From positions 10,904 to 74,903 of the forward strand of contig VYFB01000068.1 of NCBI GenBank assembly GCA_009842645.1: a DNA stretch of 64,000 nucleotides, given 5' to 3'. The notes under the pieces were generated by a model, which saw only the letters and a list, made by a program, of their open reading frames with translations, was not told where the DNA came from and made no database searches. This document shows positions 47,712-64,000 of this stretch, piece by piece. The translations under genes and the position numbers were made by a program. How positions within the stretch are numbered: position 1 is the first letter of the stretch; each line of letters starts with the position of its first letter. The DNA comes from Nitrospira sp. SB0677_bin_15. Its GTDB lineage: Bacteria; Nitrospirota; Nitrospiria; Nitrospirales; UBA8639.

Positions 47712-47800
47712 GTCGTCAATTCCGTTAAATTTACCGTAAAAATAACGGAATCACCGGCAATCGTCAATCACTCAGACCGTGCAACACATCAAATGGTCAT

Positions 47801-47930
47801 CTTCGATCCCCGATTACGAACGTCGGGGACAGGCTATTTTTAATCGAGGATCCAGCGTCTTAGCTTTTTCTTCTGTAGTGGTAGCTGCGCCCTCCCTGTT
47901 CAAAGACAGGGACATGCCTCATGGCGCATT
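47801..47930. repeat. Block of gatccccgat/cggggac, ttaatcgaggatcca and gtagctgcgc motifs
   Basis: Shares the three sub-motifs with the 21253-21590 composite. Confidence 0.5.
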
Positions 47931-47931
47931 T

Positions 47932-47971
47932 CTCCCTCTCCCCAAGGTGGGAGAGGGCCGGGGTGAGGGGG
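47932..47971. repeat. Family A hairpin repeat (copy A4, reverse orientation)
   Basis: ctccctctccccaaggtgggagagggccggggtgaggggg. Confidence 0.75.
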
Positions 47972-47977
47972 CATCGT

Positions 47978-48445
47978 TCAGGCATCCAACTGACTGTCTT
48001 TCAAGTTGTCAATGTATCGCCTGTCCTCCGGAGTGGATAGACCACTAACAACAAGCCAGAAACAATATTTCTTTTCGCCGACAAGGTTTTTTATCTCGGG
48101 AAATTTATTCATTAAGCGGGCTAGGACCAGTAAGGAACCATAAACCTTTAAACAATTTTCCGTTTTCACTTTTTCATCGACGAAATTTTTCTGGTCATTG
48201 TCGTTTAAGTACTGAACCTCCCTTTTCCATCTCTTTATGCTTTTTAGTAATTGTGTCTCCTCAATAAGAAAAACTGAATCGTTGTTTGTCACAAAATAGT
48301 CGCAGCAAGCACATGTGCCCAAACCCGCGTCTTTCCTCATATCAGGTTGCGGTGAGTTGCCATCCATGCGATAGGCGCGGTGGATTTCACTTAGAGGCAT
48401 ATTAGCGAGTTCGATGGGTTCCAGGAATTTTTCAAGGGCAATCAT
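47978..48445 (-). CDS. Small partner protein of ATPase 2 (PD-(D/E)xK-like core, homologous to 24739-25308)
   Basis: 155 aa. ATGA overlap with the ATPase C-terminal ORF. Shared blocks QPDM, CDYFV and FLIEE with the other locus. AT-rich. Confidence 0.5.
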   Translation of the reverse strand: MIALEKFLEPIELANMPLSEIHRAYRMDGNSPQPDMRKDAGLGTCACCDYFVTNNDSVFLIEETQLLKSIKRWKREVQYLNDNDQKNFVDEKVKTENCLKVYGSLLVLARLMNKFPEIKNLVGEKKYCFWLVVSGLSTPEDRRYIDNLKDSQLDA

Positions 48446-49735: not shown

Positions 49736-49885
49736 GGCCTGTCAATTTATGTGCGAAAGCTGTGTCATGCAGCATGGGACTACCTCGGCAAATTTTTGCC
49801 GACACCAAAATTCAGTGATACGCGACCAGGATGAAGCATAAACGCCCTGTTTCCTCCAGACAAGCCTAACCTGCCTTTCCCTAAG

Positions 49886-49960
49886 CTGTCATTTTTGTAT
49901 GTGTTCAATCATTCGTTGACACCCCTCACCCCAGCCCTCTCCCGCCGTGGGGAGAGGGGG
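49886..49960. repeat. Family B motif plus family A hairpin (copy A5)
   Basis: gctgtcatttttgtatgtgttcaatcattcgttgac + cccctcaccccagccctctcccgccgtggggagaggggg. Inverted relative to A4. Confidence 0.8.
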
Positions 49961-50050
49961 TTCGCCTTTTCTTTTCTGCTGCCCTCGCCATTTTCAGCCA
50001 TGTCTCCGCCCGGTGGCCTTCGGGAACAGTCGCATGGTATAACCTCAACC

Positions 50051-50743
50051 ATGAGAGCGTGCGATTCCTGCGAACAACAGAATCCTGATGATGCCCGGTT
50101 CTGCCTGCGTTGCGGCAAGGAGTTTCCTGCGGAAGCAGCGGCTGAGGCTGAGACCGGGACGGATCAGGAGGAGCAGTATTGGCGGACGTTGATCGGTCCC
50201 GGGAGATGTATCCAGTTCACGTTGACGAGCGGCTGGTCGTGGAAACCCGCGTGGGACTATTACCGGCGTGCGTTTCAACGGTTTCACACCGCACAAGGCC
50301 CCCGCTTTTCGCTCACGTGGAACTGGGCCCCGTTTTTGGTCGAACCCTTTCTCTGGTTTCTGTATCGCAAAATGTACCTGTTTGCGTTCGTGTACTTTAT
50401 CGGCCCCATCGTGTCCGTGTTTATCACCAGCGATATCACGGTGCCGATTGTGTGGTCGATCATCGCCAGCGCGAGCGCCAATTACGTGTATTACTGGCAC
50501 CTGAGAGACCTGTTGTTGAAGGCAAAAGCCCGAACCGCCCTGGACCACGCAACCCGCATGCGTCAGCTCATGGATGAAGGCGGCGTACAATCTTATGTGT
50601 TCTGGTTGGTGGCGGCGTCATTCTTATTGAAGATCGGCGTCTTCTTTGCCGTGTTCGGCGAAGCGCCGCTCGAGGACGGGTTTCCCTTGCCTGACGGGGA
50701 GCCCGGCGGGGAGGAGACGGAGGGCCGCAGGATGTTCCTGTGA
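50051..50743 (+). CDS. Zinc-ribbon + DUF2628-like membrane protein
   Basis: ATG 50051 (MRACDSCEQQNPDDARFCLRCG). The NWAPFLVEPFLWFLYRKMY motif is typical of DUF2628. Upstream ORF sequence is repeat-derived. Confidence 0.6.
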   Translation: MRACDSCEQQNPDDARFCLRCGKEFPAEAAAEAETGTDQEEQYWRTLIGPGRCIQFTLTSGWSWKPAWDYYRRAFQRFHTAQGPRFSLTWNWAPFLVEPFLWFLYRKMYLFAFVYFIGPIVSVFITSDITVPIVWSIIASASANYVYYWHLRDLLLKAKARTALDHATRMRQLMDEGGVQSYVFWLVAASFLLKIGVFFAVFGEAPLEDGFPLPDGEPGGEETEGRRMFL

Positions 50744-50763
50744 CGGCCGTGAACGAATCGGGA

Positions 50764-51600
50764 TCAGTGGCCAGGCCCGGCCGGTTGCGACAGTTCCCAC
50801 CCGAACCATGATTGGAACCACTCATAATCGCTTTGGTAGGCCGTATGCGCCGTGGGCAGTCCGTCGTCGCTTTTCTCCTTCAACAGGGTATAGGTCCGGG
50901 GCCAGTTTTTGGTCCACCAGGATTTGAGTTCGCCCGGGGTAAACGGATGGTCATTGGGCTGACGAATGCCGGCGGCCGTAATCACATCGGTGAGCAGTGG
51001 CCAATAGCGGTCCTTCCCCAGGTTCAGGGTGCGAAAATGTTCACGGAGCAGAAACACGACCCATAACTCGGCACTGTGTTTCTTGTTGTGCTTAAAGGGT
51101 TGCGTCTGTCGCAGGGGAATGGGATCGAAGTCTTTGATGATCGAGGTATAGTCCGGTCCGCCGTAACTGCCCGCGACTTTGGCGATGTCCTGTAACATGT
51201 TGGCCAACTCGACCTCGACGATCGGGGAAGCCGAAGGTGCCGTTTGGCCGGCCAGGGGATTGGGCGTCGTCAAGAGGTCGATCAGGGGTTTGAGTTCGCG
51301 CAGGCGCGTCACTGCGGCATTGAGAATCTGCGCCGATTCCAACCAGTAGTCCGGATCGTGTTTGGAGACGCGTTCACGACCCGGCGGGGGCAACACGATG
51401 GGGATCCAATGGCGCACCAGGACGAACAGGATGTACGGCATGTCCCCATCGACTTCCGCCACGCGGTCCAACACGTTGTGGGGCGTGACCGCGTTTTCAA
51501 AGAACTGCTCGACTTTCTCCTCGATGTTGAGCCGTTGCGCCAGCGTGATCCACCACCGGGCATCGAGGCGAGGTCGGTCGGGTTGAGTCATAGGCGGCAT
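50764..51600 (-). CDS. Hypothetical protein
   Basis: 278 aa from ATG 51598-51600 (MPPMTQPDRP...). No recognised domain. The track's longer ORF reads through the I/H repeat. Confidence 0.5.
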   Translation of the reverse strand: MPPMTQPDRPRLDARWWITLAQRLNIEEKVEQFFENAVTPHNVLDRVAEVDGDMPYILFVLVRHWIPIVLPPPGRERVSKHDPDYWLESAQILNAAVTRLRELKPLIDLLTTPNPLAGQTAPSASPIVEVELANMLQDIAKVAGSYGGPDYTSIIKDFDPIPLRQTQPFKHNKKHSAELWVVFLLREHFRTLNLGKDRYWPLLTDVITAAGIRQPNDHPFTPGELKSWWTKNWPRTYTLLKEKSDDGLPTAHTAYQSDYEWFQSWFGWELSQPAGPGH

Positions 51601-51726
51601 GACGGTTGTCTCGGAGACGTGATTCTGTCTGGAACTGACGGGGAGCGGGACGTGCTTGGCATGGTACGGGGTGCGGCAGAGCAAAGCAAGGGGAGAGCAC
51701 CGGGTGGTCTGTAGGGGCGAACCGGA

Positions 51727-51850
51727 GCCTGCCCTGAGCGTCCTTCGACTCCAAGCGCGTAGTGCCTTACGCTCAGGATGCACGGAGAAGTCCCCCGCTC
51801 GTCCTGAGCGTAGCGGAGCGAAGTCGAAGGAAGCGAATGGGTGTTCGCCC
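51727..51850. repeat. Composite family I + family H repeat (copy 2)
   Basis: gcctgccctgagcgtccttcgactccaagcgc...gctcaggatg, then cctgagcgtagcggagcgaagtcgaagg. Confidence 0.7.
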
Positions 51851-51872
51851 GGTTCGCACATAAGGAGGGAGC

Positions 51873-52478
51873 ATGAAACACGTCGTCCTGATTCGCCACG
51901 GTGAATCACAATGGAATCTCGAAAACCGGTTTACCGGGTGGATGGACGTCCCCCTTAGCTCCAGGGGTGAACAGGAAGCGCGGGAAGCCGGGGAGAAACT
52001 CCGGGCTTTCCAGTTTGATCATGCCTTTACCTCCGTGTTGACGCGGGCCATCAGGACCTTGGAGATCGTGTTGGACGTCATCGGACAATCCGGGCTGCCG
52101 GTCGAACGACACCAGGCGTTGAACGAACGTATGTACGGCGAATTGCAAGGCCTCAATAAGGCCGAAACGGTAAAACAATACGGAGAGGCCCAGGTGAAAT
52201 TGTGGAGAAGAAGTTACGACGTGCGCCCCCCGGGCGGAGAAAGTCTCAAGGACACGGCCGACCGCGTGTTGCCTTATTACCGGGAACACATATGGCCCCG
52301 CCTGGCCAAGGACGAGACGCTCCTGGTCGTGGCCCACGGCAACAGCCTGCGCGCCCTTGTCATGCACCTCGACCGGCTCTCGCGCGAAGACGTGCTCGAA
52401 CTCAACATCCCCACCGGCGCCCCGCTGCTGTATGAACTGGACGATCAGGGACATGCCGTCTCGCATCGGTATTTGTAA
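51873..52478 (+). CDS. gpmA: 2,3-bisphosphoglycerate-dependent phosphoglycerate mutase (short form)
   Basis: [18 protein letters not shown] histidine-phosphatase motif. AAGGAGG upstream of ATG 51873. Confidence 0.85.
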
Positions 52479-52628
52479 CCCTCCGTTTTCCCATCTGTTG
52501 CCAGGGACATCACAAAAGAACAACTCAGCAAGGTCAGGAACGAAACATGTAAGAATGAGCCTGGAGCTACAGCGGGCCTTTGGGTTGAGAAGGGAAAAAG
52601 CCACGAAGTTCCAACCCAGCTATGCTGC

Positions 52629-53345
52629 TTAGGGCCACAGGTGATATCTTAGGGCAAATATCCAAGTATCACTGGGGTTGTCCCCGTGGATTTTCCTGTA
52701 ATTGAAGTTGATTCCGAGGTTCGCATGAACTCGGCGCTCCAGTGTAAACCACAGCATGTTGTTCTCGTATTGACCGGTCGAGAAGTTGGCTACGAAGCCG
52801 TCAAGCTCCCACTTGGGCCACGGCAGGGTCCGTATCCCGACCTCAGCATAGTGACCGTCCCCTATCTCGGTGTCGACGATTCCGAATCCGGGGACTTTGA
52901 CGTCCGTTTCCGAATTCGCGTAGCCCAACCGGTACTGTAAGGTCATGCCCTCACCGATGCGCTGCTTGACCCCCCCTCCCAGGAGGTAGCCTCTGCGCTC
53001 TCCTTTAACGCCGGGGGCAACATCGCCAAGATCAATGGTAGTTCCCTGGTAGCCGCCGAAAACGTGGAACGGTTCCGCGACCTCGAAACTGAAGCCCAGA
53101 GTCAGCCCCTCAGAGCCCTGATGGGTGTTCGACACCTCATACTCCAGACTGACGTAGGTGTAGGAAACTTCTGTGTAGTATGCAGGAAACTTCTGTGTAG
53201 GAGAAACTTCTTCGAGTTCGGGCTCTTCTGCCTTGGCTATCTGTCCCGCGCTGGCCAGTACCAAGGCAAGGCTCATGCCCAGAACCAACGCCGCTCCGCT
53301 GATCTTCTCTGAATCTTTCAGCCACATGATCGTCCTTCTTCTCAC
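52629..53345 (-). CDS. Outer-membrane beta-barrel protein
   Basis: Signal peptide (...ALVLASAGQIAKAEE), alternating-hydrophobicity strands, and a C-terminal aromatic end (YHLWP). Confidence 0.6.
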   Translation of the reverse strand: MRRRTIMWLKDSEKISGAALVLGMSLALVLASAGQIAKAEEPELEEVSPTQKFPAYYTEVSYTYVSLEYEVSNTHQGSEGLTLGFSFEVAEPFHVFGGYQGTTIDLGDVAPGVKGERRGYLLGGGVKQRIGEGMTLQYRLGYANSETDVKVPGFGIVDTEIGDGHYAEVGIRTLPWPKWELDGFVANFSTGQYENNMLWFTLERRVHANLGINFNYRKIHGDNPSDTWIFALRYHLWP

Positions 53346-53643
53346 TTCACTCGGTCTTTTCCGCCTGAGCCCAAGACGCCCTCGACGTGATCATCATCCC
53401 GCTTGCTGCATGATTTTGATCCAGTCTAAAATAAGGGGCTGTTCTAGCTAAAGGTTAATGGTGTGCGTGTTTAGACCAGATTCGAAGCTGCCTTAAAATG
53501 AGTTTGGTGATTGGCCCATTGGATATACGCTCGGTTATCCCAAACGTTTTGCTTAGTTGGTTATGTTTCGCCCCGATTACCCCGTAACATTTTTTGTCGG
53601 TTTTGGCAATCATCTCCCTGCCGTTTGTGCGCCGCGGACTTCT

Positions 53644-54141
53644 CTATCTCAGGGTTTCCTCCAGTTCGGCGACGAGTTCGCCGATCTCGTCGATCGGGAC
53701 CAGGTCGAGCAAAACCGCCAGCATGTTTTGCCGGGAGTGGGAGGCAATGACGTGATCGTCCTCGAGCCCCTCTGCTGCGTCACTTAAGACCGCAATGGGT
53801 TCCCCGCCCTGTTGCGTGATGTCTTCCCAGGTCCGGTGCTTGCGTTCCATCGCGGCATAAAACTCATCGATGGGAACGTGGACCAGCCCGAACCGGCTGC
53901 CCCATTTTTCATGGACCTGCTCATGAATGGCTTGGTGCATCCGGCTGCAAACGGGTTCGGGAATACTCACGCGTACGGCGCAGGTGATCCAATACAGACT
54001 CAGGGCTAACAGTTCTTTGGTGACGGCTTGCGCCTGTTGAGCGGTGAAGGTCAGTCCGTACTCTTCGAGGAAATCGGGGGCGACGGACGGAGGGATGAGT
54101 TGAACAAGAGCTTTCGCGGTTTCCTGGGCTTGTTCAGTCAT
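53644..54141 (-). CDS. Hypothetical protein
   Basis: 165 aa from ATG 54139-54141 (MTEQAQETAK...). No recognised domain. Confidence 0.45.
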   Translation of the reverse strand: MTEQAQETAKALVQLIPPSVAPDFLEEYGLTFTAQQAQAVTKELLALSLYWITCAVRVSIPEPVCSRMHQAIHEQVHEKWGSRFGLVHVPIDEFYAAMERKHRTWEDITQQGGEPIAVLSDAAEGLEDDHVIASHSRQNMLAVLLDLVPIDEIGELVAELEETLR

Positions 54142-54261
54142 GGCATGTTCGGGTGAGGGCTTCTGCCGATCGCCTGCGCAGCATACGCAGCAGGGCGTGA
54201 TTGAGGCAAGCGCTTCGCTTGACACTGAAACTTGGCGAATGCCACGCTTCACACGTGCAGG

Positions 54262-54288
54262 CTGTAGGGGCGGACCCCTGTGTCCGCC
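54262..54288. repeat. Family G GC-hairpin (copy G1)
   Basis: tgtaggggcggacccctgtgtccgccc, stem ggggcggac/gtccgcccc. Confidence 0.75.
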
Positions 54289-54317
54289 CTCTCAAGGAAA
54301 GGGGCGTTGACGGGTTG

Positions 54318-54701
54318 ATGGCAGACCTCTTCATGGGTTTGACGAGCTTGGCTTGGGGGTTGGCCGGGCTGATAGTAGCCGTTGTGCCCGCCGTGGCGCT
54401 CGTTTGGGCCAAGCCGATTCTCCTGGACCCCTGGCCACGCTTCTGGTTCGGGCAGACGATCCTGCTGTTCGGGTTGTTGTTGATGATCGGCACTACGGCT
54501 CTCAAGGGGTTTTGGGTCTGGGCGGCGTGCGGCGCGCTGGCCACGATCAAGGCCTGTCTGTTGCTGGGGGCCCCGGTGTCGTGGCGGGAACGGGTGTTGC
54601 GATGGCTCGGCACGTGGCCGCCGTGGCTGTACCGGGTCGGCGGGACAGTCGACCTGGCCCTGGCGATTGGGTTGACCGCAGACCTCATGCTCCATGGCTG
54701 A
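54318..54701 (+). CDS. Small integral membrane protein
   Basis: 127 aa from ATG 54318, with four hydrophobic segments. Confidence 0.5.
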   Translation: MADLFMGLTSLAWGLAGLIVAVVPAVALVWAKPILLDPWPRFWFGQTILLFGLLLMIGTTALKGFWVWAACGALATIKACLLLGAPVSWRERVLRWLGTWPPWLYRVGGTVDLALAIGLTADLMLHG

Positions 54702-54711
54702 GAAGGACGCC

Positions 54712-55008
54712 ATGATTTCATCGAATGAGCAGGACCTGACCAGATTGTGGGATATCCATCAGGCGGCGGAATGGCCGGTCGGGGTGGGCTTCCATGAAGG
54801 TGAACTCATGACCCTGGATACGGTCGTCAGCGGGTGCGCCGCCTATTATTTTGAAGAACGTGAACTCGACCCGCAGCGCGTGGCGATCCTTGAAGATTGC
54901 CTGTCCGACCTGGAGGCCGTCCTGCCGGAATTGAGCGAAGCCTCCTTGGACTATTTCGAGCGGGTCAAGCAATTGGGCGGGTTGCTGCTGGAAACGGGTC
55001 GCCGGTGA
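54712..55008 (+). CDS. Hypothetical protein
   Basis: ORF 54694-55008. ATG 54712 avoids overlap with the previous gene. The stop overlaps the next ATG (TGATG). Confidence 0.4.
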   Translation: MISSNEQDLTRLWDIHQAAEWPVGVGFHEGELMTLDTVVSGCAAYYFEERELDPQRVAILEDCLSDLEAVLPELSEASLDYFERVKQLGGLLLETGRR

Positions 55009-56009
55009 TGAAACGTGCAGGGAACAACGATCGTTGTTCCCTACTGGCAATAGCATCCGTCGTTCTTTGCTTCATCCTGTCAACGGGGACCACGGCAACG
55101 GGCGCGGAGTTCACGTTCATGGCCCTGGGCGACATGCCCTATGGCTCGCGTGAGCAAGCCTACCCTGCGTACAAGGCGTTGATCGCGGCGATCAACCGCC
55201 GGGCGCCCGTCTTTACCATCCACGTCGGCGACACCAAGTCGGGCCTGGACGGCTGCTCCGACGAACTGCTGCTGGAGCAGCGGGATTTCATGAACAGTTT
55301 CACGTCGGCCCTTATCTACATCCCCGGGGACAACGAGTGGACCGACTGCCATCGCTTGCTGGCCGGTGCGTATGATCCGCTCGAACGGCTGGCATTCATC
55401 CGCAGGCACTACTTCCCGGCGGACGAGAGTCTCGGCGGGCAACCGATGCGTCTTGAGCGTCAGGCGGACGTGATGCCCGGCTTCGAGCCGTTTGTGGAAA
55501 ACAGCCGGTTCAAGTGGAGAGGCGTGTGGTTTATGACCGCGCACGTGGTCGGCTCCAACAACAATCTCGATGACGCCGCGGATTCTGATGCGACTCGAGA
55601 ATTCCTTCCACGTGACGAGGCGAATCGAGCGTGGCTGGCAGACTCGTTTGACAAGGCGATGGCTGCTGACGCCGGGGCCGCGGTCATCGCTATTCATGCC
55701 GACATGTTCGGGGACGGGTTCAATCCGGATGAGGAATCCTTTGCCCGCGTTTCAGGCTTCAAGGCTTTCGGAGAAACGCTTGCCGCGAAGGCCCGGTCCT
55801 TCCGGAAACCGGTCCTGCTGCTGTTCGGGGACAGTCACACGTTCCGAATCTTTCACCCCTTTCCTCGCTTGGCCGGTAACCTGATTGCCGTGGAGGTGTA
55901 CGGCGGAGAACACATGCACGCTGTAGAGGTCACGGTGGATCCGGGTGTGGCTCCCATATTCACGTTCAAGCCCGTGCGGAACCCCGCTTTGCCCTTGCCC
56001 ATTGATTGA
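55008..56009 (+). CDS. Secreted calcineurin-like metallophosphoesterase
   Basis: Signal peptide, then FMALGDMPYG, HVGDTKSG, PGDNEWTDC motifs. Confidence 0.7.
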   Translation: MKRAGNNDRCSLLAIASVVLCFILSTGTTATGAEFTFMALGDMPYGSREQAYPAYKALIAAINRRAPVFTIHVGDTKSGLDGCSDELLLEQRDFMNSFTSALIYIPGDNEWTDCHRLLAGAYDPLERLAFIRRHYFPADESLGGQPMRLERQADVMPGFEPFVENSRFKWRGVWFMTAHVVGSNNNLDDAADSDATREFLPRDEANRAWLADSFDKAMAADAGAAVIAIHADMFGDGFNPDEESFARVSGFKAFGETLAAKARSFRKPVLLLFGDSHTFRIFHPFPRLAGNLIAVEVYGGEHMHAVEVTVDPGVAPIFTFKPVRNPALPLPID

Positions 56010-56069
56010 CTGGTCAAAACCCCTATGCTACGTTTTTTGTTCAATCTGAAACATGAGTAGACGAACCCT

Positions 56070-56984
56070 ATGGAAAAAGACCTGAAAAGCATTCTGGGTA
56101 AACTGCAATACACCGACGATGCCAAGGTCGTTCAGCAGATCACCCAGCAAACCCGGCAGGTACAGGACCGCATGGCGGGGATCAAGCACAAGATTGTGGT
56201 GATGAGCGGCAAGGGCGGTGTCGGGAAAAGCATGACCACGGTCAATTTGGCCTTGGCCTTGGGACGGCAAGGCCACAGGGTCGGGATCATCGACGTGGAT
56301 CTGAACGGGCCGTGCGTGCCCCGTATGATGGGGATTCTGGGCAAGGGGCTTGAGGTTACGCCGGACGGGGCGCGGCCGCCGGAAGGGCCATACGGCATCA
56401 AAGTGGCGTCCATGGATTTCTTGCTCAATGAGACGGCTCCCGTGCGATGGAAAGGCCCGATGGATTTGAGTCCCGTGTGGCTCGGGCTCATGGAAATGAA
56501 CGTGATCCGCGAGTTCCTGGCTGATATTCTCTGGGGCGACCTGGATTATCTGTTGGCCGATCTCCCCCCGGGCGCCGCAGCAGATAAGCCGCCGGTCATC
56601 GCCGGATTCCTACCGGACCTGGCCGGCGCAGTGGTGGTCACGACGCCGTCGGAAGTGGCTTCGAACGTGGTGCAGAAGTCGATCGGCTATGCCACGGAAC
56701 TGGGGATCACGATCTTGGGCGTGGTCGAAAACATGAGCTACTACCGGTGCCCGTCATGTGGCGCAGAGAATGAGCTGTTCGAAGGCAACACCGAGGGCAT
56801 GTGCGAAGCGCTCAACCTGCCGTTGTTGGGCCGTATTCCCTTTGACCGGAACTTTGCGAAGACGTTCGATAAAGGGACGCCGTTGTTGGATGGGGAGTAC
56901 CCCACGAACCGGCGCTATACGGATATTGTCGGCCGCATCCAGTCGATGTTGGATTACAAAAGAGTGCTGGCCGAAAATTTGTAG
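56070..56984 (+). CDS. apbC: Mrp/NBP35-family Fe-S cluster carrier ATPase
   Basis: VMSGKGGVGKSMTTVNLA deviant Walker A, and a CPSCG cysteine pair. Confidence 0.9.
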   Translation: MEKDLKSILGKLQYTDDAKVVQQITQQTRQVQDRMAGIKHKIVVMSGKGGVGKSMTTVNLALALGRQGHRVGIIDVDLNGPCVPRMMGILGKGLEVTPDGARPPEGPYGIKVASMDFLLNETAPVRWKGPMDLSPVWLGLMEMNVIREFLADILWGDLDYLLADLPPGAAADKPPVIAGFLPDLAGAVVVTTPSEVASNVVQKSIGYATELGITILGVVENMSYYRCPSCGAENELFEGNTEGMCEALNLPLLGRIPFDRNFAKTFDKGTPLLDGEYPTNRRYTDIVGRIQSMLDYKRVLAENL

Positions 56985-57008
56985 GGGCGGACCTGCGTGT
57001 CCGCCCCA
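56981..57008. repeat. Family G GC-hairpin (copy G2)
   Basis: gtaggggcggacctgcgtgtccgcccca. The TAG within it (56982-56984) is the apbC stop codon. Confidence 0.75.
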
Positions 57009-57055
57009 TTGAACTCAGAGGTTCCTTACCTTTAACTTTCCCGCGTGAGGCCACT

Positions 57056-57799
57056 ATGAAATTTGTCTGCTTGAACTGCGAAACCTATATGAGTTTTGAA
57101 AAAGTGGAGAAACCCGCCGAAGGCTCGCTCGGAGTGTTTTTCGCCTGTCCTTCCTGCGAAGCGAAGGTATCCATGGTGACGAATCCTGGCGAAACCCAAA
57201 TGGTCAGTTCTCTGGGCGTCCAGCTTGGCGGGCGGACGGTGGACCCTTCTCCATTGGAAATGACACGGGGGACGTTGAAGGAAGACGCCGGGACTCCGGC
57301 CGCGTCGGGGTCCATGACGGACTATCTGAACGAAAAAATCCACGCCGGACAGAGCGCGAACCCCGCGCCCGGCGCGACCGCCAAAGAGGGCGAGTCCGGC
57401 GGCTGTCCGTTTTCCGCGATGGTCGCGCAGATGGGATTAACTGGCGGCGAGTCCTCCACCGGCACACAACCGGCAGCACTGCAATGGAGTCCCGACGCGC
57501 AGGAACGGTTGGACAAGCTGCCGTCGTTCGTGCAGCCGATGGTGAAGGGCAGCGTGGAAACGTACGCGCGGAAGCACGGCTATTCGACCGTGACGCTCCA
57601 AGTCATGGATGATTCCAAGAATTCATCGAACGGCTTGAGTTGGTCGCCGGAAGCCGAGCAGCGCCTGCGCAACATCCCGGATTTCATTCAACCCATGGCC
57701 CGCAAGGAAATCGAACGGCTGGCCCAGGAACGTGGCGAGACCACGGTCTCTGCCGAACTCATGGACGAAGCCAAGGAAAAGTTCATGAAGTTTATGTGA
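57056..57799 (+). CDS. Zinc-ribbon protein with two PCP-reductase-type (PF08369-like) repeats
   Basis: CLNCETY...CPSCEAK, then duplicated W(S)P(D/E)A(Q/E)(E/Q)RL..(L/I)P.F(V/I)QPM... helices. Confidence 0.6.
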   Translation: MKFVCLNCETYMSFEKVEKPAEGSLGVFFACPSCEAKVSMVTNPGETQMVSSLGVQLGGRTVDPSPLEMTRGTLKEDAGTPAASGSMTDYLNEKIHAGQSANPAPGATAKEGESGGCPFSAMVAQMGLTGGESSTGTQPAALQWSPDAQERLDKLPSFVQPMVKGSVETYARKHGYSTVTLQVMDDSKNSSNGLSWSPEAEQRLRNIPDFIQPMARKEIERLAQERGETTVSAELMDEAKEKFMKFM

Positions 57800-58084
57800 C
57801 GCAGAGTCTGGACCAAGGTGTACGGCAAGGTCGGGATCATCGCGGATACGCGCCTTCATGACCTCCGCCACGCGCACGCCTCGCACGCGGTGATGAGCAG
57901 CGAGAGTCTACACATCGCCGGGTGCTTACTCGGACATCGGCGCGCCAGCACCACCAACCGCTACGTCCATCTTGACGATGTGCCCCTGAGCGAGGCGGCT
58001 GAACGTGTGGCGGTGGTGATTGACGCAAAGTTGTCCCATAAGAACCAAAACGTTACTGAGAAAAATAATGAAGTTCGAACTTGA
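57800..58084 (+). pseudogene. 5'-truncated tyrosine recombinase (C-terminal ~90 codons only)
   Basis: ...RLHDLRHAHASHAV...LLGHRRASTTNRYVHL (HxxR, H and catalytic Y boxes). The reading frame opens directly after the preceding gene's TGA with no N-terminal or core-binding domains. Confidence 0.7.
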
Positions 58085-58763
58085 AACAACGCTGAGAGGC
58101 GCTACAAATCTTGAACTCCTCGAAGAACTTCGGCGCTGCGCAAGCGAGTTGGGGCGAGATACGATTACCCAAGCTGGGTTTGCCAAAATAGGCAAAGGGC
58201 ACCCAACAACGATCACTCGTAGATTTGGTTCGTGGCCGCAAGCACTTGATATGGCTGGTCTGCGGCCTAGCCGATCCAAAATAGGCATTTCTGACGATGA
58301 ACTCTTTGAGAACCTCAGAAACGTTTGGATGTTCTTGAAACGTCAACCACGGTATGGTGAGATTAGTAAACCGCCTTCTCAATTTAGCACCAGTCCATAC
58401 GAAAAGCGTTTTGGTGGGTGGACCAATGCGCTCAAAAAGTTTGTTGAATGGGTTAATGAGGAGGATGAATCGAAACATGTTCCGAAAGCACGTAAACACA
58501 TTGTTCCTGACAATCGACCATCAAGGGACCAATCATCTCGTAGAACGAAGCGCAATATATCAGAACGCCAAAGATTTCGGATTCTATTGAATGCGGGATT
58601 TCGTTGTCAGTCTTGCGGTGCATCTCCGTTGACTTCTTCCGGTACAGAGCTTCATGTAGACCACATAATGCCGTGGTCCAAAGGTGGAGAAACAATCGAC
58701 GATAACCTCACCTGCAAATGTAAACAATGTAACCTCGGGAAGGGGAATGCGTTTAAGTATTGA
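58068..58763 (+). CDS. HNH endonuclease with N-terminal homing-endonuclease-associated repeats
   Basis: Two ...FGSWPQAL / FGGWTNAL repeat units, then HVDHIMPWSKGGETIDDNLTCKCKQCNLGKGN. AT-rich. ATG 58068. Confidence 0.75.
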   Translation: MKFELETTLRGATNLELLEELRRCASELGRDTITQAGFAKIGKGHPTTITRRFGSWPQALDMAGLRPSRSKIGISDDELFENLRNVWMFLKRQPRYGEISKPPSQFSTSPYEKRFGGWTNALKKFVEWVNEEDESKHVPKARKHIVPDNRPSRDQSSRRTKRNISERQRFRILLNAGFRCQSCGASPLTSSGTELHVDHIMPWSKGGETIDDNLTCKCKQCNLGKGNAFKY

Positions 58764-58815
58764 AGTGTCACGCTTCTGCAATTGCTTGCGGAAGCGTGGA
58801 GCATGATTGAGAGCT

Positions 58816-59220
58816 TCACCCGAGGTGTCGATTGACGAATTCCCGTGGCGTTATGATCTGAACATTTTCATAGCCGGATATGGTCAGCAGATCGCTGTCA
58901 CCGCTGATAATTGTTTGCGTGGCGCTCGCTAAAGCGCAGGCAATGAACATATCGTCATCCGCGTCGTGTGAAGCTGGTTCGGGTAACGGCAACGGATCCA
59001 CAATGTGACAGTTTTGGACAATCAGAATAAGAATTTGAGTAATTTCGATATTCGGATATCGAAGGGAAAGTCGTTCGCAGACTTCAAAGTATTCCTCCAG
59101 AATCTCGTGTGAGACGACAAATACGAGTTGGCCGTGAAGCCATGCCTCCAGGATTCGCGCTGGCGGTCCGTCGAAGAAGATACCCGATATGAGAACGTTG
59201 GTATCTACGACGACTTTCAT
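58816..59220 (-). CDS. PIN-family toxin
   Basis: MKVVVDTNVLISG...; 134 aa. ATGA overlap with the upstream antitoxin. Confidence 0.75.
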   Translation of the reverse strand: MKVVVDTNVLISGIFFDGPPARILEAWLHGQLVFVVSHEILEEYFEVCERLSLRYPNIEITQILILIVQNCHIVDPLPLPEPASHDADDDMFIACALASATQTIISGDSDLLTISGYENVQIITPREFVNRHLG

Positions 59221-59480
59221 TTCCCGGAACGGACTTCCGAGATAACGGATTTGACTTCGGCCCGCTTCAAGCCGGCTTTTCTCGCCTGCTTTCTGGCGTT
59301 TGCTAGCAGGGTGGCAAATTCGCCCATTGAGGGTGGGGAGATGGCTTTCATGATGACCGTATCCTTGTTGGCGATCACCACGAATTGAGTCCCGGCCTCA
59401 AGCCCCAGGCGTTTTCGAATCTCTTCGGGAATGACAACCTGTCCCTTCGAAGACATCTTTGTCGTCGTCAGTTCTGCCAT
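59217..59480 (-). CDS. AbrB/MazE/SpoVT-family antitoxin
   Basis: SSKGQVVIPEEIRKRLGLEAGTQFVV swapped-hairpin motif. Confidence 0.75.
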   Translation of the reverse strand: MAELTTTKMSSKGQVVIPEEIRKRLGLEAGTQFVVIANKDTVIMKAISPPSMGEFATLLANARKQARKAGLKRAEVKSVISEVRSGK

Positions 59481-59597
59481 ATGGGTTCCCTCCTTTCTGC
59501 AATCTTACTGGTAAGATTATCGTACTCGCCCTTTCACCAGTTGTGCAACCATATTCTGGGTTGTTGAAAAAACATTGCTCCCTTTACCCAACTCCCT

Positions 59598-60227
59598 TTA
59601 CCCAAACACCTTCCAATTCGCATACGGCTTCAGGCGGTAAATCTCTTCCACGGGCGTCTTCAGCATGACGCCCCGTTGCTCCAGCAGGTCGGCGGTCTGC
59701 CGCAGGGGCAACCCGACGATGGTGGGATAATCTCCTTCAATTTTCTCGATGAACCGCGCCCCTTCCCCTTGAATTGAATAAGCTCCGGCTTTGCCTAAAC
59801 TTTCTTCAGTCTCCAGGTAGTGCCGGAGTTCCTGGTCTGTGAATGCCGTCATCCTGACCAGGGCGGTTTCGCCCCGGACGACGGTCACGGATACGGTCTC
59901 GTGAATGAGCGCGATGCCGGTGTGTACCTGGTGAGTGCGTCCCCGGAGTTGACAGAGCATGGTTTCGGCGTCGTCGAGGTCCTGCGGCTTGCCCACCAGT
60001 GTTCCATCGATCTCAATCACCGTGTCGCTCCCCAGTACCAGATTATCAGGGTGCCGGTGTGCGATAGAGCGGGCTTTGTCGAGCGCGAATTGTTTCGCTT
60101 GCTCACGAGGCGAAAGGCCGGGCGAAGGAATTTCCTCGACCGTGGGCGGGACGACCTCGAACGTGATACCGAGCAGGGTCAGCAGTTCGCGGCGGCGCGG
60201 AGAGGTGGAAGCCAGGATGACGGACAC
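59598..60227 (-). CDS. maf: Maf-like nucleoside triphosphate pyrophosphatase
   Basis: ILASTSPRRRELL, GSDTVI, GKAGAYSIQG. GTG start at 60225-60227. Confidence 0.85.
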   Translation of the reverse strand: MSVILASTSPRRRELLTLLGITFEVVPPTVEEIPSPGLSPREQAKQFALDKARSIAHRHPDNLVLGSDTVIEIDGTLVGKPQDLDDAETMLCQLRGRTHQVHTGIALIHETVSVTVVRGETALVRMTAFTDQELRHYLETEESLGKAGAYSIQGEGARFIEKIEGDYPTIVGLPLRQTADLLEQRGVMLKTPVEEIYRLKPYANWKVFG

Positions 60228-60242
60228 GGGGCTCGTAGCGGA

Positions 60243-61403
60243 TTACGCCGGTGCTGCGGTGAAGGCTTCGACGTCGGGTGCGACGTGCCGTGAGACGTAT
60301 TCGTGCAGCAATCGCTCAACGTCCTTAGAATTGTTGGTCTTGACCATATCGGCGCGCAGGGCGGCCGCATGTGGAAAGCCGCTGCAGTACCACCCCAGAT
60401 GTTTGCGCATACGCGGGAAACGGGGAGCGTCATGAAACCGTTCAAACGTGTGGGCATGCTTCAGGATCATGTCGAACCGGTCTTCACGGGAAACCGCAGG
60501 TTCGGGAACCGGACATTGGTGGTAGGGGCGGACCTGTGTGTCCGCCCTGGCCTGCACGGCTTCCCGGACCGCTTCTTTGCCGTGGAAGATCCACGGGTTG
60601 CCCAGAGCCGCCCGGCCGATAAGAATGCCGTCTACCCCGCTCGCAAGGATGCGGGCGATGGCTTCGTTCAAGGAGCCGATGTCGCCGTTACCCAACACGA
60701 GAATGCCTTGTTCGCGGATTTGAGCCGCAGCCTCGGCGATCGCGTCCCAATCCGCGTCGCCCCGGTACATTTGTTTCAACGTGCGACCGTGGATGGATAT
60801 GACCTGGGGCCGGCCTTGGGCGAGGCACGCGCTCCATTCCTTGATAATGACGGAGTCATACCCCAGGCGCGTCTTTACTGAAAGCGGAAGGGCGGAACGC
60901 GGGGTGGGCTGATGGTCCTGTGAGGCACGCGCCATGCGCACTTTTTCGACGATGCCGGGTTTGAGTCCGGCTTCGGCCAGGGTTTGCCCGTCTGCCCAAT
61001 CACGAAGCCCGCGTTCGGTCGCGGCCATGATGTCCAGCGCCAGTTCCGGCGTTTTGATGAGTCCGGCGCCGCACCCGGACGACGCCACGTTTTTCGACGG
61101 ACACCCCATGTTGATATCCAGGCCGTCGAACCCGAGTTCGCTCACCACGTGGGCGGCCTGGTAAAACAACAGCGGCTCTTTGCCGTACAACTGGGCCACG
61201 ATCGGGCGTTGCCCGTCGGTGTACCGTAACGGCTCCCAGCCCATAACCCGGCCCTGGCAAATATCGTGGACGTTGGTGAATTCGGTAAAGATCACGTCCG
61301 GCCTCCCGTAGGTGGCGACAACGTGGCGGAACGCAATATCAGTGACCCCGTCCATGGGAGCCAACCCGATGATGGGACGCGGAAGATGATGCCAGAAGCT
61401 CAT
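60243..61403 (-). CDS. dus: tRNA-dihydrouridine synthase (DusB/C-like, not DusA-like)
   Basis: IGLAPMDGVTDIAFR, DINMGCP, HGRT. Start at ATG 61401-61403 (MSFWHH), supported by the relic copy that begins MNFWHQ. Confidence 0.85.
   Translation of the reverse strand: MSFWHHLPRPIIGLAPMDGVTDIAFRHVVATYGRPDVIFTEFTNVHDICQGRVMGWEPLRYTDGQRPIVAQLYGKEPLLFYQAAHVVSELGFDGLDINMGCPSKNVASSGCGAGLIKTPELALDIMAATERGLRDWADGQTLAEAGLKPGIVEKVRMARASQDHQPTPRSALPLSVKTRLGYDSVIIKEWSACLAQGRPQVISIHGRTLKQMYRGDADWDAIAEAAAQIREQGILVLGNGDIGSLNEAIARILASGVDGILIGRAALGNPWIFHGKEAVREAVQARADTQVRPYHQCPVPEPAVSREDRFDMILKHAHTFERFHDAPRFPRMRKHLGWYCSGFPHAAALRADMVKTNNSKDVERLLHEYVSRHVAPDVEAFTAAPA
60523..60547. repeat. Family G GC-hairpin (copy G3) lying in frame inside the dus CDS
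   Basis: taggggcggacctgtgtgtccgccc, translated on the minus strand as ...ARADTQVRPYH... Confidence 0.7.
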
Positions 61404-61408
61404 GGTTG

Positions 61409-61711
61409 TCATGAGTTCTCAAATTTTGAAACAACATCCATATTTTTATGAAGAATTCTGACGATTTCAATAAAACTTTCCGTGCCGTTTCGGTAAAAAA
61501 TAATATGGCTTGCGTGAGGAAATTTTTGGTAGCCAATTTTTATAGAATCGCAGGCTTTGCTCATTGACGGGGTGTTGGCGAGCAAATGGAAAACATCATC
61601 AAAATGCTTAAGGTAGATATTGCGCTGGTTGCGTCCCCACTGCTTTTCGGTAAATCTCGCAATCGCTTTCAGGTCAGCCTTTGCCGCATTGGTGAGCACA
61701 AACGGCTTCAT
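61409..61711 (-). CDS. parE: ParE/RelE-family toxin
   Basis: 100 aa. ...AKADLKAIARFTEKQWG...HIIFYR...IEIVRILH. ATGA overlap with parD. The stop lies 5 nt from the dus ATG. Confidence 0.75.
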   Translation of the reverse strand: MKPFVLTNAAKADLKAIARFTEKQWGRNQRNIYLKHFDDVFHLLANTPSMSKACDSIKIGYQKFPHASHIIFYRNGTESFIEIVRILHKNMDVVSKFENS

Positions 61712-61950
61712 TGACGAGTTTCTTCATCCAGTTCAACTATCAATGTCTCATAGCTGTAGTCAGAAATACCGCTTTGTTCTCCGTCTTCCAGCGCGCGGCG
61801 CAGGGTTCCAAGCCTGTTCTCGGAGTTCTCAAGCAATCGGAGAGCGGCTCGCACCACTTCGCTGGCCGAGCCATAACGGCCACTTTCAATCTGGTGAGCA
61901 ATGAATCCATCAAAATGTTCGCCGAGCGTAATGCTGGTATTTTTCGCCAT
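61708..61950 (-). CDS. parD: ParD-family RHH antitoxin
   Basis: MAKNTSITLGEHFDGFI...GRYGSASEVVRAALRLLE. ATG at 61948-61950. Confidence 0.75.
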   Translation of the reverse strand: MAKNTSITLGEHFDGFIAHQIESGRYGSASEVVRAALRLLENSENRLGTLRRALEDGEQSGISDYSYETLIVELDEETRQ

Positions 61951-62067
61951 ATCCCGATCCTTAATACCGATATGTACCAAATTTTGGTATAAAACTCATA
62001 ACAAGTCAATCAACTACGCGCCTCCGGTCGTAACAAAACGGCCCTGGTTATTGAGGCTTGGCAACAT

Positions 62068-62122
62068 GCATGGGAGCCAACCCGATGATGGGCCGCGGAA
62101 GCTGATGCCAGAAGTTCATGGC
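62068..62122 (-). other. Relic copy 1 of the dus 5' end (start codon plus ~17 codons)
   Basis: Reads MNFWHQLPRPIIGLAPMH, against dus MSFWHHLPRPIIGLAPMD. Roughly 90% nucleotide identity to 61350-61406 by eye. Confidence 0.75.
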
Positions 62123-62158
62123 CGATCAGGATATCTTCTTATCTGCCGACAATCTTGA

Positions 62159-62545
62159 TCATGCCGGCTCGACATCAGTGTGGGTGAAATCCTCGCCTTT
62201 GAACAGAAGCGGTTCTCCTGTCGTTTTTGCGAGAGCGTAGGCAAAACAGTCGCCGAAATTCAACGCTGCCCGGTGGTTCCCCTTGCCGAAACGCCGCCAA
62301 GCGAGGCGGGCGGCGTTGACATGTTCAGACGTGACAGGAACCAACTCGACCTCCGCTTTCTCCAATAGCACATCCAGCTCATGTCCTGCCTTGGCTCCAC
62401 TCCGGCTTTCGACAACCATTGCCGCCTCAAGCAACGCGATCGCCGACATGCGACGGGGCCATGCCGCGACTATCGCATCTTCATAACGCCCCGCGTCTGG
62501 TTCGTCGAGCAGGATGGCAAGGAGGGCCGATGTATCGATAATCAT
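62159..62545 (-). CDS. vapC: VapC PIN-domain toxin
   Basis: MIIDTSALLAILLDEPD..., ...NFGDCFAYALA. Confidence 0.82.
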   Translation of the reverse strand: MIIDTSALLAILLDEPDAGRYEDAIVAAWPRRMSAIALLEAAMVVESRSGAKAGHELDVLLEKAEVELVPVTSEHVNAARLAWRRFGKGNHRAALNFGDCFAYALAKTTGEPLLFKGEDFTHTDVEPA

Positions 62546-62799
62546 TTGGGTAAGCCGTGCTCATCGTAGAGCAAGTCGCCATGCTCGATGGCCGAGGGTC
62601 CCGGCTTCATGAGCTTGGCACAACGCTTGGCTATGGCACGCAACTCCCCAGCCAGGGCTTCCGCGCTACGTTCACGCTTCTCGCGCTCCAGGCGTTCGCG
62701 CAACGCCACGGTAATCGCGCCGGTCATGGTCTCGCCGGTCAATTTAGCTAGCTCACCAGCGAGCCTGCAGGTTTCGTCGTTTTTGATGTTCAGGCCCAT
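62542..62799 (-). CDS. vapB: VapB-family antitoxin
   Basis: 85 aa. MGLNIKNDETCRLAGELAKLTGETMTGAITVALRERL. ATGA overlap with vapC. Confidence 0.7.
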   Translation of the reverse strand: MGLNIKNDETCRLAGELAKLTGETMTGAITVALRERLEREKRERSAEALAGELRAIAKRCAKLMKPGPSAIEHGDLLYDEHGLPK

Positions 62800-62911
62800 C
62801 CCGTTTCCAATGGTAGAAAAAATATTTGCCTTCTACCCTACGCGATGCCGCGATCATATGCAACACGGTGACTCTCTTTCTTCACCAGAGGGGCGTACTA
62901 AATTGGAAAGG

Positions 62912-62996
62912 GAGGTGGCGATGACGTGGTAGAACGCAATATCGGCAACCCCGTCTATGGGAGCCAATCCGATGATGGGCTGTGGAGGAGGGTGAT
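62912..62996 (-). other. Relic copy 2 of the dus 5' end (codons ~4-30, no start codon)
   Basis: Reads ...PQPIIGLAPIDGVADIAFYHVIAT, against dus ...PRPIIGLAPMDGVTDIAFRHVVAT. Corresponds to 61309-61393. Confidence 0.7.
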
Positions 62997-63005
62997 GCTA
63001 AAAAC

Positions 63006-64000
63006 TTATACGTGTTCCAGTTTCTTTATCAGGTAAGGAAGCACGCACACATCATCTTTGTTGTATTCGAAAACTCTTGAATCGATTTTTCTCTTCTCCT
63101 TGATGTGCAACAAGTATGCCGAAGCCACATAGAGGCCTCCCATGTCTGGATGCTTAAACTCATAGCCTAAGTGCTTGCCAAGATCTTTTAGGGCATATTT
63201 CTGTATGGGAAAGATGAAGCTATTCCTTATGGATTTACACAGATCAATGTGGGGAATGGAGGAAAAATTTTTACAATCAAGACCATTCCTTTTCAAAGCA
63301 TTACAAACCACACTCCAATCAAAATTGGTTCCAGAATAGCTCACAAGAGTTACCCCGGATTTTTTACCTAGAAATTCAAGAAATGCCTTTAGCATAATTT
63401 TTTCCTGTTTCCAGTCTTTTGCAAAGAACTGTTCAAATTTTTCGTCATGTAAAATCCCGATAAGCCAAATTCTCCGCTGGTTCAGATCGGTTTCAATGTC
63501 AAAGAACATCAAGTTGTTTTGGGGCAGGTTAGTCTCCGAACTCCGCAAGATCCTGTTTTCCATTACCGAGATTGCATTTAGTTTTGCTTTCTCAACGAAA
63601 TTTTTTGGAAGGTTAGTTTTTTGGGAGATCCGTTCCAGATTCTTTGCTTTTGCCATCTGCGGAATAGTTTTGATTCCAGCCTGTTCGAACCGAAACGCCC
63701 TTTTCTGTTTGATTCCGTGAAGTCGTTCCAGAGAATTCGGGTCGATAAGTTGACGTGTGTCGGACCATCGTATGTGCGGAGGAAACTCTGATTCAAATTC
63801 AATCAGTGCCAGATTTCCGGGTGCTCTGTCATGGTCATGTGACGAGACATTTGCAATCAAGGTTTCGCCGAATTGCTTTGAATGCCGTCCCCCTAAATGG
63901 CAATGACCGCATACGACTAGTTCTACAAGATTCTTTTGGATAAATCTTGTCAGAGCTTTTGAGCCTATGCGATGAATTCCCTCTTGTTCGGAAGCAAATC
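63006..64000 (-). CDS. Metallophosphoesterase fused to RNase H-like (YprB-type) exonuclease domain; partial, runs off right edge
   Basis: The frame stays open upstream of the track's TTG start: ...EGIHRIGSKALTRFIQKNLVELVVCGHCHLGGRH... (GHxH phosphoesterase motif). It continues into FFDIETD...SYSGTNFDW...YNKDDV. Strongly AT-rich. Confidence 0.6.
   Translation of the reverse strand, partial: FASEQEGIHRIGSKALTRFIQKNLVELVVCGHCHLGGRHSKQFGETLIANVSSHDHDRAPGNLALIEFESEFPPHIRWSDTRQLIDPNSLERLHGIKQKRAFRFEQAGIKTIPQMAKAKNLERISQKTNLPKNFVEKAKLNAISVMENRILRSSETNLPQNNLMFFDIETDLNQRRIWLIGILHDEKFEQFFAKDWKQEKIMLKAFLEFLGKKSGVTLVSYSGTNFDWSVVCNALKRNGLDCKNFSSIPHIDLCKSIRNSFIFPIQKYALKDLGKHLGYEFKHPDMGGLYVASAYLLHIKEKRKIDSRVFEYNKDDVCVLPYLIKKLEHV

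Follow-up and report, generated by a model that had tools for sequence, protein, structure and literature searches.

The window, a 64,000-nucleotide stretch of contig VYFB01000068.1 from Nitrospira sp. SB0677_bin_15, carries a tRNA-dihydrouridine synthase gene, dus (60243..61403, minus strand), whose 5' end recurs twice upstream as truncated copies. These copies, here termed relics, alternate with toxin-antitoxin (TA) genes. Read along the minus strand in the orientation of dus, the order is a Metallophos/RNase_H_2 gene, relic 2, the vapB operator region, vapB, vapC, a 37-nt spacer, relic 1, an integron attC site, parD, parE, 5 nt, dus, and maf. Gene identities in the window come from Pfam searches, and L-numbers (L001, L029, and so on) label the loci and contigs that were compared. 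The dus gene (Pfam Dus, 3.8e-56) is DusB-like and not DusA, as the initial annotation of this DNA had anticipated in calling it a non-DusA type; its top NCBIfam match is DusB at 205 bits, under the family cut-off. A second in-frame dus ATG at 61412 overlaps the parE stop.

Partial dus copies and TA genes in the window

The repeats were detected by repeat search, MAFFT alignment, and blastn-short. The reference copy of the repeated segment runs from the dus ATG to codon ~32 (61310..61405; repeat families D1 and D2, alignment A1) and, like all features of the stack, lies on the minus strand. Relic 1 (62064..62121) covers dus nt -3 to ~58-70; it has kept an ATG and a 23-codon open reading frame (ORF) that reads MNFWHQLPRPIIGLAPMHVAKPQ up to its stop, and 50 of the 53 bases at 62069-62121 are identical to the dus start (blastn-short E 1e-17). 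Relic 2 (62913..63009) covers dus nt 1 to ~97, with 58 of 67 bases identical at 62913-62979 (blastn-short E 9e-12), 82% identity over 82 nt, and fainter similarity on to 63009. The three copies, whose alignment had been proposed in the initial annotation, share a 23-nt core, CCCATCATCGGNTTGGCTCCCAT, which occurs three times in the window against zero occurrences expected from shuffles. The same annotation had described the dus start as recurring at two upstream sites that bracket parDE and vapBC, and all five of its statements on the sequence were confirmed. Collectively, the repeat copies are displaced or duplicated dus 5' ends that bound separately acquired units.

Two TA pairs occupy the spaces so delimited. 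The parE toxin gene (61409..61711; Pfam ParE_toxin, 2.6e-17) ends 5 nt before the dus ATG and is preceded by the parD antitoxin gene (61708..61950; ParD_antitoxin, 1e-32), which is called as an 80-aa gene on the source contig. Similarly, vapC, encoding a PIN-domain toxin (62159..62545; PIN, 2e-18), is preceded by vapB, encoding an Rv0623-like antitoxin (62542..62799; PSK_trans_fac, 5.7e-27). Based on the matching Pfam families and on the 4-nt overlap within each pair, parDE and vapBC are predicted to be type II TA modules. The region upstream of vapB (62800..62912) contains a palindromic operator-like sequence (GGTAGAAGG...TTCTACC) that is kept 5' of vapB in 10 loci. Beyond relic 2, the gene for a protein with Metallophos and RNase_H_2 domains (63006..64000, assigned by Pfam) runs past the window end and is complete in L001, at 483 aa. 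This phosphoesterase gene has a GC content of 38-44% and a PADLOC match to PDC-S10 (2e-13), which makes it a candidate defense gene. No tRNA or tmRNA genes were found in window positions 45000-64000.

Each relic lies flush with its upstream cassette, in the manner of the joins between cassettes and a working dus elsewhere (vapC, a 22-nt spacer, and ATG in L010 and L013). The 37 nt that separate the vapC stop from the relic 1 ATG (62122..62158), a former vapC-dus junction, are homologous to that 22-nt spacer, and their final 8 nt match the sequence immediately 5' of dus in L027. For relic 2, the start codon has decayed from ATGA to ATAA and still supplies the stop of the phosphoesterase gene; this TAA stands at the exact place of the former ATGA start/stop overlap. 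The intact overlap, GTATGAGC, is retained at the relic 2 start in L184, L196, and L197, which indicates that the phosphoesterase gene once abutted a working dus. As to the opposite ends, relic 1 breaks off at the base of the attC hairpin, and relic 2 terminates at ...ATCGCCACC, where the dus of relatives carries an inserted palindromic element.

Within the vapB upstream region, the similarity of 62860-62886 (GGTGAAGAAAGAGAGTCACCGTGTTGC) to dus is not significant on its own in the window (p = 0.48), and this segment is a possible, very decayed older relic. The equivalent position in L017 holds a clear relic of dus nt 27-70 (p < 0.003). Of the older relic 5' of vapB, the L017 copy alone is significant, those in the window, L184, and L196 being not significant, and the sequence beyond it, tested as diverged dus nt 71-170, proved not to be so. 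No additional relics were found in the 10 kb upstream of the stack on the source contig.

An integron attC beside parDE

Between relic 1 and parD lies a decayed integron attC of 68 nt (61996..62063); this site and the ATGA-derived stop of the phosphoesterase gene had been overlooked in the initial annotation. A 23-nt stretch 5' of parD that the window shares with L029 has exact matches in 94 metagenome contigs, and in nearly all of them it forms the 3' part of a ~75-nt imperfect palindrome with unrelated flanks on both sides. The palindrome follows the layout RYYTAAC-GCCTCAATAACCGGCGC-loop-GCGTCCGGCGCC...GTAGTTGATTGACTT-GTTARRY, and the ends of the attC family are RYYYAAC and GTTRRRY. In the longer contigs (L129, L122, L112, L133) the sites recur in same-orientation arrays at 0.5-1-kb spacing, which is the organization of integron cassette arrays. 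We extracted 62 distinct copies and aligned 49 (alignment A3) to build a covariance model, R1. With filters off, R1 gives a single match in the 64 kb, at 61996-62063 (34.5 bits, E 2.8e-6), where the inner stem has decayed; this score compares with 83-103 bits for the scored metagenome copies, and the orthologous copies in L029 (54.2 bits) and L184 (51.5 bits) are better kept.

At its 5' end, the parDE cassette (TTATGAGTTTTATACCAAAATTTGGTA...; 61951..61995, including a promoter-like site) matches the same arrays. In three distinct ones (L095, with its duplicate contig L140, L157, and L165), an attC of this family precedes the same cassette start (TTATGAG..TATACCAAAAT..GGTA) and a parDE pair. 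The position of the attC between relic 1 and parD, together with these metagenome arrays, identifies the parDE unit as an integron-derived cassette lying outside any integron. Neither an intI gene with attI nor a cluster of two or more attC sites, as in an integron or a CALIN (attC sites clustered in the absence of an integron integrase), was present: a search of the window and of 32 Nitrospirales loci gave no intI, and the window holds no intact tyrosine recombinase. A second attC was sought with R1, filters off; none occurred in the window, including near the vapBC and phosphoesterase units, and the 32 loci gave only orthologous copies, R1 being specific to one attC family so that an unrelated attC could be missed. 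What is found is one attC beside a coding cassette, accompanied neither by an integrase nor by another att site; this corresponds to a single attC lacking integron integrase (SALIN), a class in which cassettes insert into the genome at attG (Loot et al., bioRxiv 10.1101/2022.09.11.507474). The likeness extends to a single TA cassette, parDE, with a putative promoter of its own. What differs is that the attC here lies on the promoter side of parDE, abuts a dus fragment, and is decaying, and the junctions misfit a simple attC x GWT insertion.

A promoter-like match (62009..61981; consensus match only) places its -35 box, TTGACT, within the attC 3' end. The attC thus probably supplies the -35 box of the parD promoter, which may explain why that half is conserved while the rest decays. 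No terminator-like site was found between parD and dus on the minus strand, so that parDE transcription probably reads through into dus. The 5-nt gap between parE and dus is a secondary deletion; the spacer there measures 136 nt in L184 and 100 nt in L029. Such a 100-136-nt spacer before the dus ATG was found only in parDE-bearing loci, and we therefore rejected it as the native dus leader. In L185 (7762-8303), a parDE pair whose ParE is 77% identical to that of the window lies between an FMN-dependent dehydrogenase gene and histidine-utilization genes, with no dus nearby; this unrelated context in a metagenome-assembled genome (MAG) indicates that the module moves between genomic contexts.

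The locus in related Nitrospirales

An exact look-up of the VapC protein returned 13 contigs, from Ircinia-sponge metagenomes and the Nitrospira MAGs GCA_009843795.1 and GCA_009841415.1, and the full stack is present in all 13 contigs of this population. Three apparent departures were set aside: a fourth relic in L002 is an assembly artifact with the same ends on both sides of an N-gap, the phosphoesterase gene missing from L003 merely reflects the contig end, and relic 1 of L008 lacks an exact core match through one substitution only.

Scanning one genome per species, we examined 80 Nitrospirales dus loci of at least 586 GTDB matches. The frame of rhomboid(-), DHH-like(-), dus(+), and maf(+) is syntenic throughout, in more than 70 Nitrospirales, with maf (59598..60227, minus strand in the window; Pfam Maf, 8.3e-57, and synteny) as the conserved right-hand side. 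The DHH-dus interval, in turn, varies in size across the 25 closest species, from 122 to 6171 nt. Its deep-ancestral occupant is a LOG-like gene of 423 aa on the opposite strand, which is absent from the window. The vapBC pair abuts dus in L010, L013, L017, and L023 and lies between the DHH and LOG-like genes in L011 and L024; L027 has lost vapBC, and what remains of the vapB operator is fused to dus. At L029:6438-9191, and also in L028 and L030, a complete Zorya type II system, arranged zorB - zorA - zorE, lies directly 5' of dus (PADLOC ZorB2 1e-63, ZorA2 2e-45, ZorE2 2e-42). The zorE frame ends in the TGA of an ATGA overlap, shared with the dus start in L028 and L030; in L029 Zorya is followed by relic, attC, and parDE. 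A 232-aa ORF overlaps dus by ATGA in L032 and L033, and L031 carries a ParA-like pair. Between the DHH-like and phosphoesterase genes of L001, a 260-aa protein (6001-6783, ~window 65763-66545) matches the PADLOC family PDC-M19B (9e-67), a candidate defense family, and the 3-kb stretch that carries its gene is missing in the closer relative L184. With conserved core flanks, hypervariable defense-rich content, and no mobile-element hallmark genes, the locus is a core-gene-framed TA and anti-phage hotspot in sponge- and marine-associated Nitrospirales.

The contents of this interval are exchanged horizontally. L001 and L029 share 89% identity in parDE, versus 78% in dus, 77% in maf, and 78% in DHH, which indicates that the parDE unit is younger than the split of the species. 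The unit of relic, attC, parDE, and spacer has vapBC as its upstream neighbor in L001 and L184 and Zorya in L029. Moreover, vapBC falls into two allele types, with 76% identity between and 88-93% within types, and each type occurs in every positional configuration, independent of dus relatedness. In strains of the L029 species, at L187:3292-4300 and likewise in L186 and L188-L193, ~1 kb of GC-rich DNA replaces Zorya, relic B, the attC, and the parD start; this DNA carries an ORF of 134 aa and, joined in frame to ParD at codon 3, an N-terminal extension of 128 residues, so that the resulting 'ParD' has 208 aa. This replacement, the variable trimming of relics, and the loss of vapBC in L027 are illegitimate remodeling at strain level.

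Significant relics occur in the window, L017, L029, L184, L196, L197, and the L186-L193 strains, and their lengths and end points vary (~nt 70, ~nt 97, at least nt 258). The best-kept copy of relic 1, in L184, reaches dus nt ~70, where ...GGACGGGGGCAGCGGTTGC is followed by CAAGCC and the attC. In L029, a long relic of dus nt 1-258 is fused to vapC codon ~30. Its identity is 92% with the dus of L029 itself and no more than 82% with that of any other species, which identifies it as a duplicate of the resident gene, and it is trimmed differently between strains of that species. In L029, relic B is a chimera, in which the initial ~18 nt resemble the dus of the L029 species (ATGAGTTTCTGGCAACAC), and the 24 nt after them depart from L029's dus and match window relic 1 exactly. 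Such a chimera fits a crossover inside the dus 5' homology.

Relics are not confined to the vicinity of dus. L196, a contig of 2.6 Mb, and L197, from TARA, both read DHH - phosphoesterase - relic 2 - vapBC - LOG-like(-) - native leader - dus. The relic 2/vapB junction is identical in the window and L001, L184, L196, and L197, which indicates that it arose once and later moved with the block by recombination in DHH and vapBC. In L020, the DHH-LOG intergenic region contains an inserted block whose right end carries a decayed piece of dus nt ~106-163. Relics in such positions are unexpected under insertion at the dus 5' end. A candidate relic directly after vapC in L196 and L197, GGTTGGCTCCCC, was rejected because it aligns to the native DHH-LOG intergenic sequence of cassette-free genomes. 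Relics are absent from the upstream ends of the Zorya, 232-aa ORF, and ParA-like cassettes. An order DHH - phosphoesterase - dus, predicted as an intermediate, was not found; all phosphoesterase homolog contexts found have relic 2 and vapB adjoining.

At the relic 2 break point, the dus genes of L010, L012, L013, L014, L017, L027, L184, and L197 carry a GC-rich palindromic element of 39-81 nt in frame. The element is REP/MITE-like (GGGGCTTGTCCTGAGCG...GAAGTCGAAGG) and sits at dus codon ~33, right after ...ATCGCCACC (e.g., L184:8535-8575). It adds 13-27 residues to the dus product (e.g., GACPERSATKSKG) and is absent from the window dus; a related 34-nt match occurs at window 12622-12655.

A second variable spot lies between maf and PCP_red. 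In the window it holds, according to Pfam, a MazE/PIN_3 pair, an HNH endonuclease gene, and an 88-aa integrase C-terminal fragment (57818..59480, on no single assigned strand). The corresponding interval (57800-59597) is empty, at ~130 nt, in L015, L016, L018, L024, and L026 and holds the PIN_3/MazE pair in L012, L014, L021, L022, and L196, to which the window adds the HNH gene and the integrase fragment. With this second insertion hotspot, TA-collecting spots lie on both sides of the dus-maf pair. The 88-aa tyrosine-recombinase fragment (57818-58084, plus strand) is overlapped by the HNH endonuclease gene (58020-58763, plus strand), which has homing-endonuclease-associated repeats. All 120 of the fragment's 120 best database relatives are also short fragments (49-154 aa, 58-84% identity to the query), and they come from Poribacteria, Rhodobacteraceae, Gammaproteobacteria, and Nitrospira. 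Two of their contexts were examined, and there variable, defense-like cargo comes next on the same strand, namely a restriction-modification enzyme of Type ISP, and a ParA-like gene accompanied by an RNase_T gene. The family looks like a conserved unit of integrase tail plus cargo.

Assembly of the hotspot

The initial annotation had proposed that the logic of DusA-specific integrase islands operated here repeatedly. Of this, the part that stands is that displaced or duplicated dus 5' ends delimit separate acquisitions; a DusA-type integrase with dus-end specificity found no support. A scan for the tyrosine-recombinase C-terminus motif (HxLR...LLGH...Y) found none within 10 kb on either side of dus in the 80 loci, and across the whole window it found only the 88-aa fragment, 3.3 kb off beyond maf. 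Furthermore, no integrase was present among the called genes in the 10 kb upstream on the source contig, and a dus 5' mimic was not found when 2.9 million viral contigs were scanned with two degenerate patterns.

We regard it as about an even call that this TA and defense hotspot was built by homologous and occasional illegitimate recombination, with the dus 5' relics as scars that were reused as homology arms. Most exchange would proceed by ordinary homologous recombination within the conserved flanks. On rare occasions, DNA arriving from a relative would bring a dus-abutting cassette together with the first 70-260 nt of that dus, and it would integrate with one homologous end or, in circularized form, through one crossover located within the dus 5' end. 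The other end would be joined illegitimately, preferably at the base of a hairpin-forming element, namely the attC for relic 1 and the insertion point of the GC-rich palindrome for relic 2. A role of hairpins is supported by the break points themselves, which adjoin the attC and the in-frame insert site at ...GCCACC. The product would be a truncated dus 5' copy flush against the upstream cassette with an intact dus downstream, and repetition of this step would stack the cassettes. Each relic would then serve as a 60-100-nt homology arm, upstream of which the dus-abutting cassettes of other genomes could be swapped in; this would explain the chimeric relic B of L029. As direct repeats, the relics could also permit loop-out.

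Several observations weigh against this account. Five cassette types end flush with the dus ATG, by ATGA overlap for zorE, the 232-aa ORF, and the phosphoesterase gene and by TAA-ATG for vapC, and instead of later compaction these joins could point to a precise site of insertion. The relics of two units, vapBC in L017 and parDE in L184, stop at the same dus nt 70 (...GATATTGC), a shared end that is predicted by a fixed crossover and not by random illegitimate joins. No excised circle or empty-site variant was seen among the 13 population contigs. The recombinase search covers 64 kb of the window genome and 20-kb windows of the others, and a gene encoded elsewhere could lie beyond these. Finally, the topology of the founding duplication, whether circle integration or one-sided homology at a replication fork, is something that we infer.

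A site-specific recombinase acting in trans would account for several of these points. Here the cassettes would carry a dus 5' mimic as attP, as in DusA islands, and the integrase would be encoded on a helper island or phage or belong to a gene since lost. Direct repeats of the target 5' end bracket the units, the relics are flush with the previous cassette like a former working junction, the relic/unit junction falls at dus nt ~70 for two unrelated units, and the post-parE spacer and possibly a new dus start travel with the parDE unit; moreover, dusA-, dusB-, and dusC-specific islands have been described that bring a new 5' end with them (PMC4482086; PMC8409611). We nevertheless consider such an enzyme unlikely. 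In the searches described above, the 10 kb on either side of dus showed no integrase in any of 80 species, no viral mimic turned up, and the one fragment in the window lies on the wrong side of dus; DusA-associated integrases are reported only from alpha-, beta-, and gamma-proteobacteria, adjoin the dus 5' end, and use repeats of ~21 bp (Farrugia et al. 2015, PMC4482086). The repeats here run from 53 to at least 258 nt with differing ends, against the single fixed crossover that an integrase implies. Insertion at the dus end also does not fit relic 2, which sits between the phosphoesterase gene and vapB even where a LOG-like gene parts vapBC from dus (L196 and L197), or the L020 fragment, and a displaced end for every insertion is contradicted by Zorya and the other dus-abutting cassettes without a relic. 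The initial annotation had taken TA genes upstream of dus in relatives, with no dus-end duplication, as counting against its proposal; this is found in part, since L010, L013, and L023 have the same vapBC 5' of dus without a significant duplication. A related and still less likely possibility is that the dus 5' end itself is a dedicated capture site analogous to attI, at which a recombinase encoded elsewhere would insert small promoter-bearing cassettes, each with ~70 nt of dus, by a fixed crossover near nt 70; the cassettes would stack in one orientation and be co-transcribed with dus, and integron cassettes such as parDE would be recruited as well.

We rate two further explanations low, each below those above. 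The genuine attC exactly at the relic 1 boundary, the AA/C motifs at both ends of the unit, and the genome-wide IntI-mediated insertion at GWT sites that yields SALINs (bioRxiv 10.1101/2022.09.11.507474) would fit insertion of parDE by an IntI-catalyzed reaction of attC with a secondary site, attG, and the dus duplication as a by-product. Our low rating follows from the chemistry: the canonical attC x GWT reaction makes no target duplication, and relic 1 ends in ...TTGC, one base short of the only GTT in the stretch, so that the attempted fit to IntI cleavage (G/TT, either strand) was rejected. In addition, the pre-insertion target would need a relic already lying directly before the dus ATG, the vapBC and phosphoesterase units have relics and, in the R1 search, no attC, and neither intI nor a second attC of the family was found in the window or the 32 loci. 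A purely vertical history would instead derive everything from a single ancestral insertion, with relics produced by local tandem duplication or slippage and diversity by differential deletion only. Many differences between loci are indeed plain deletions (the 5-nt parE-dus gap, L027, the trimmed relics, L017 versus L001), and the relic 2/vapB junction, the same in L001, L184, L196, and L197, arose once. This history is contradicted by the identity and neighbor data, namely the 89% in parDE against 78% in flanking core genes, the vapBC allele types that are incongruent with dus relatedness and position, and the differing upstream neighbors of the relic-attC-parDE unit (vapBC in L001 and L184, Zorya in L029), hence its low rating. 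Under tandem duplication, furthermore, a relic should have one and the same cassette to either side, a pattern that is never seen.

The locus can be compared with several known systems. Sedentary chromosomal integrons hold cassette arrays that are stabilized by TA cassettes. The stack resembles these arrays in its small single-function units, their one orientation, a repeated site between them, and prominent TA modules, whereas the repeated 'site' here is a piece of a housekeeping gene, its lengths differ from relic to relic, and there is no integrase or attI. At tRNA genes, degraded islands accrete in tandem and leave partial tRNA repeats, as in tycheposon arrays. A ladder of partial target copies between integrase-less remnants is common to both; in contrast, those arrays are made by identifiable integrases at the 3' ends of tRNA genes, and the present stack shows no integrase and targets the 5' end of a protein gene. 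With the dusA islands (PMC4482086; Durand et al. 2021, PMC8409611), the locus shares the dus 5' end as target, a displaced 5' end as direct repeat, a gene that works on, possibly with a replacement 5' end and upstream region, and TA genes as possible cargo. It differs from them in that no integrase of the DusA-associated family adjoins the dus 5' end, no directionality factor is present, and no ~21-bp att pair stands at fixed positions; the host is a member of Nitrospirota, the gene is not dusA, the units measure 0.7-0.9 kb against tens of kilobases, the repeats are longer with variable ends, and relics also lie away from dus.

The locus works most like a core defense hotspot (Johnson et al. 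2023, PMC10250203). Both have fixed core flanks, variable defense and TA content, a GC content lower than that of the genome, and no mobile-element hallmarks, and transfer via flank homology was proposed there too. The differences are the interval of 0.1-6 kb, the uncultured sponge symbionts as hosts, and the internal scars of the flanking core gene. A ladder of partial copies of a flanking core gene in an integrase-less hotspot, joined by a recruited integron cassette, in Nitrospirota symbionts, is what is unusual here.

How such integrase-less hotspots between core genes are assembled is explicitly left as an open question by Johnson et al. 2023 (PMC10250203). The locus is a readable record of hotspot assembly, in which partial copies of a core gene mark the joins of successive pieces, and it thus bears on the step of how pieces were added; comparison of ~90 related loci indicates that the pieces were swapped between species. 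It further documents, in Nitrospirota sponge symbionts, an integron cassette with a decaying attC outside an integron. Should a fixed crossover at dus nt 70 prove true, what the locus reveals would instead be a new system of site-specific capture.

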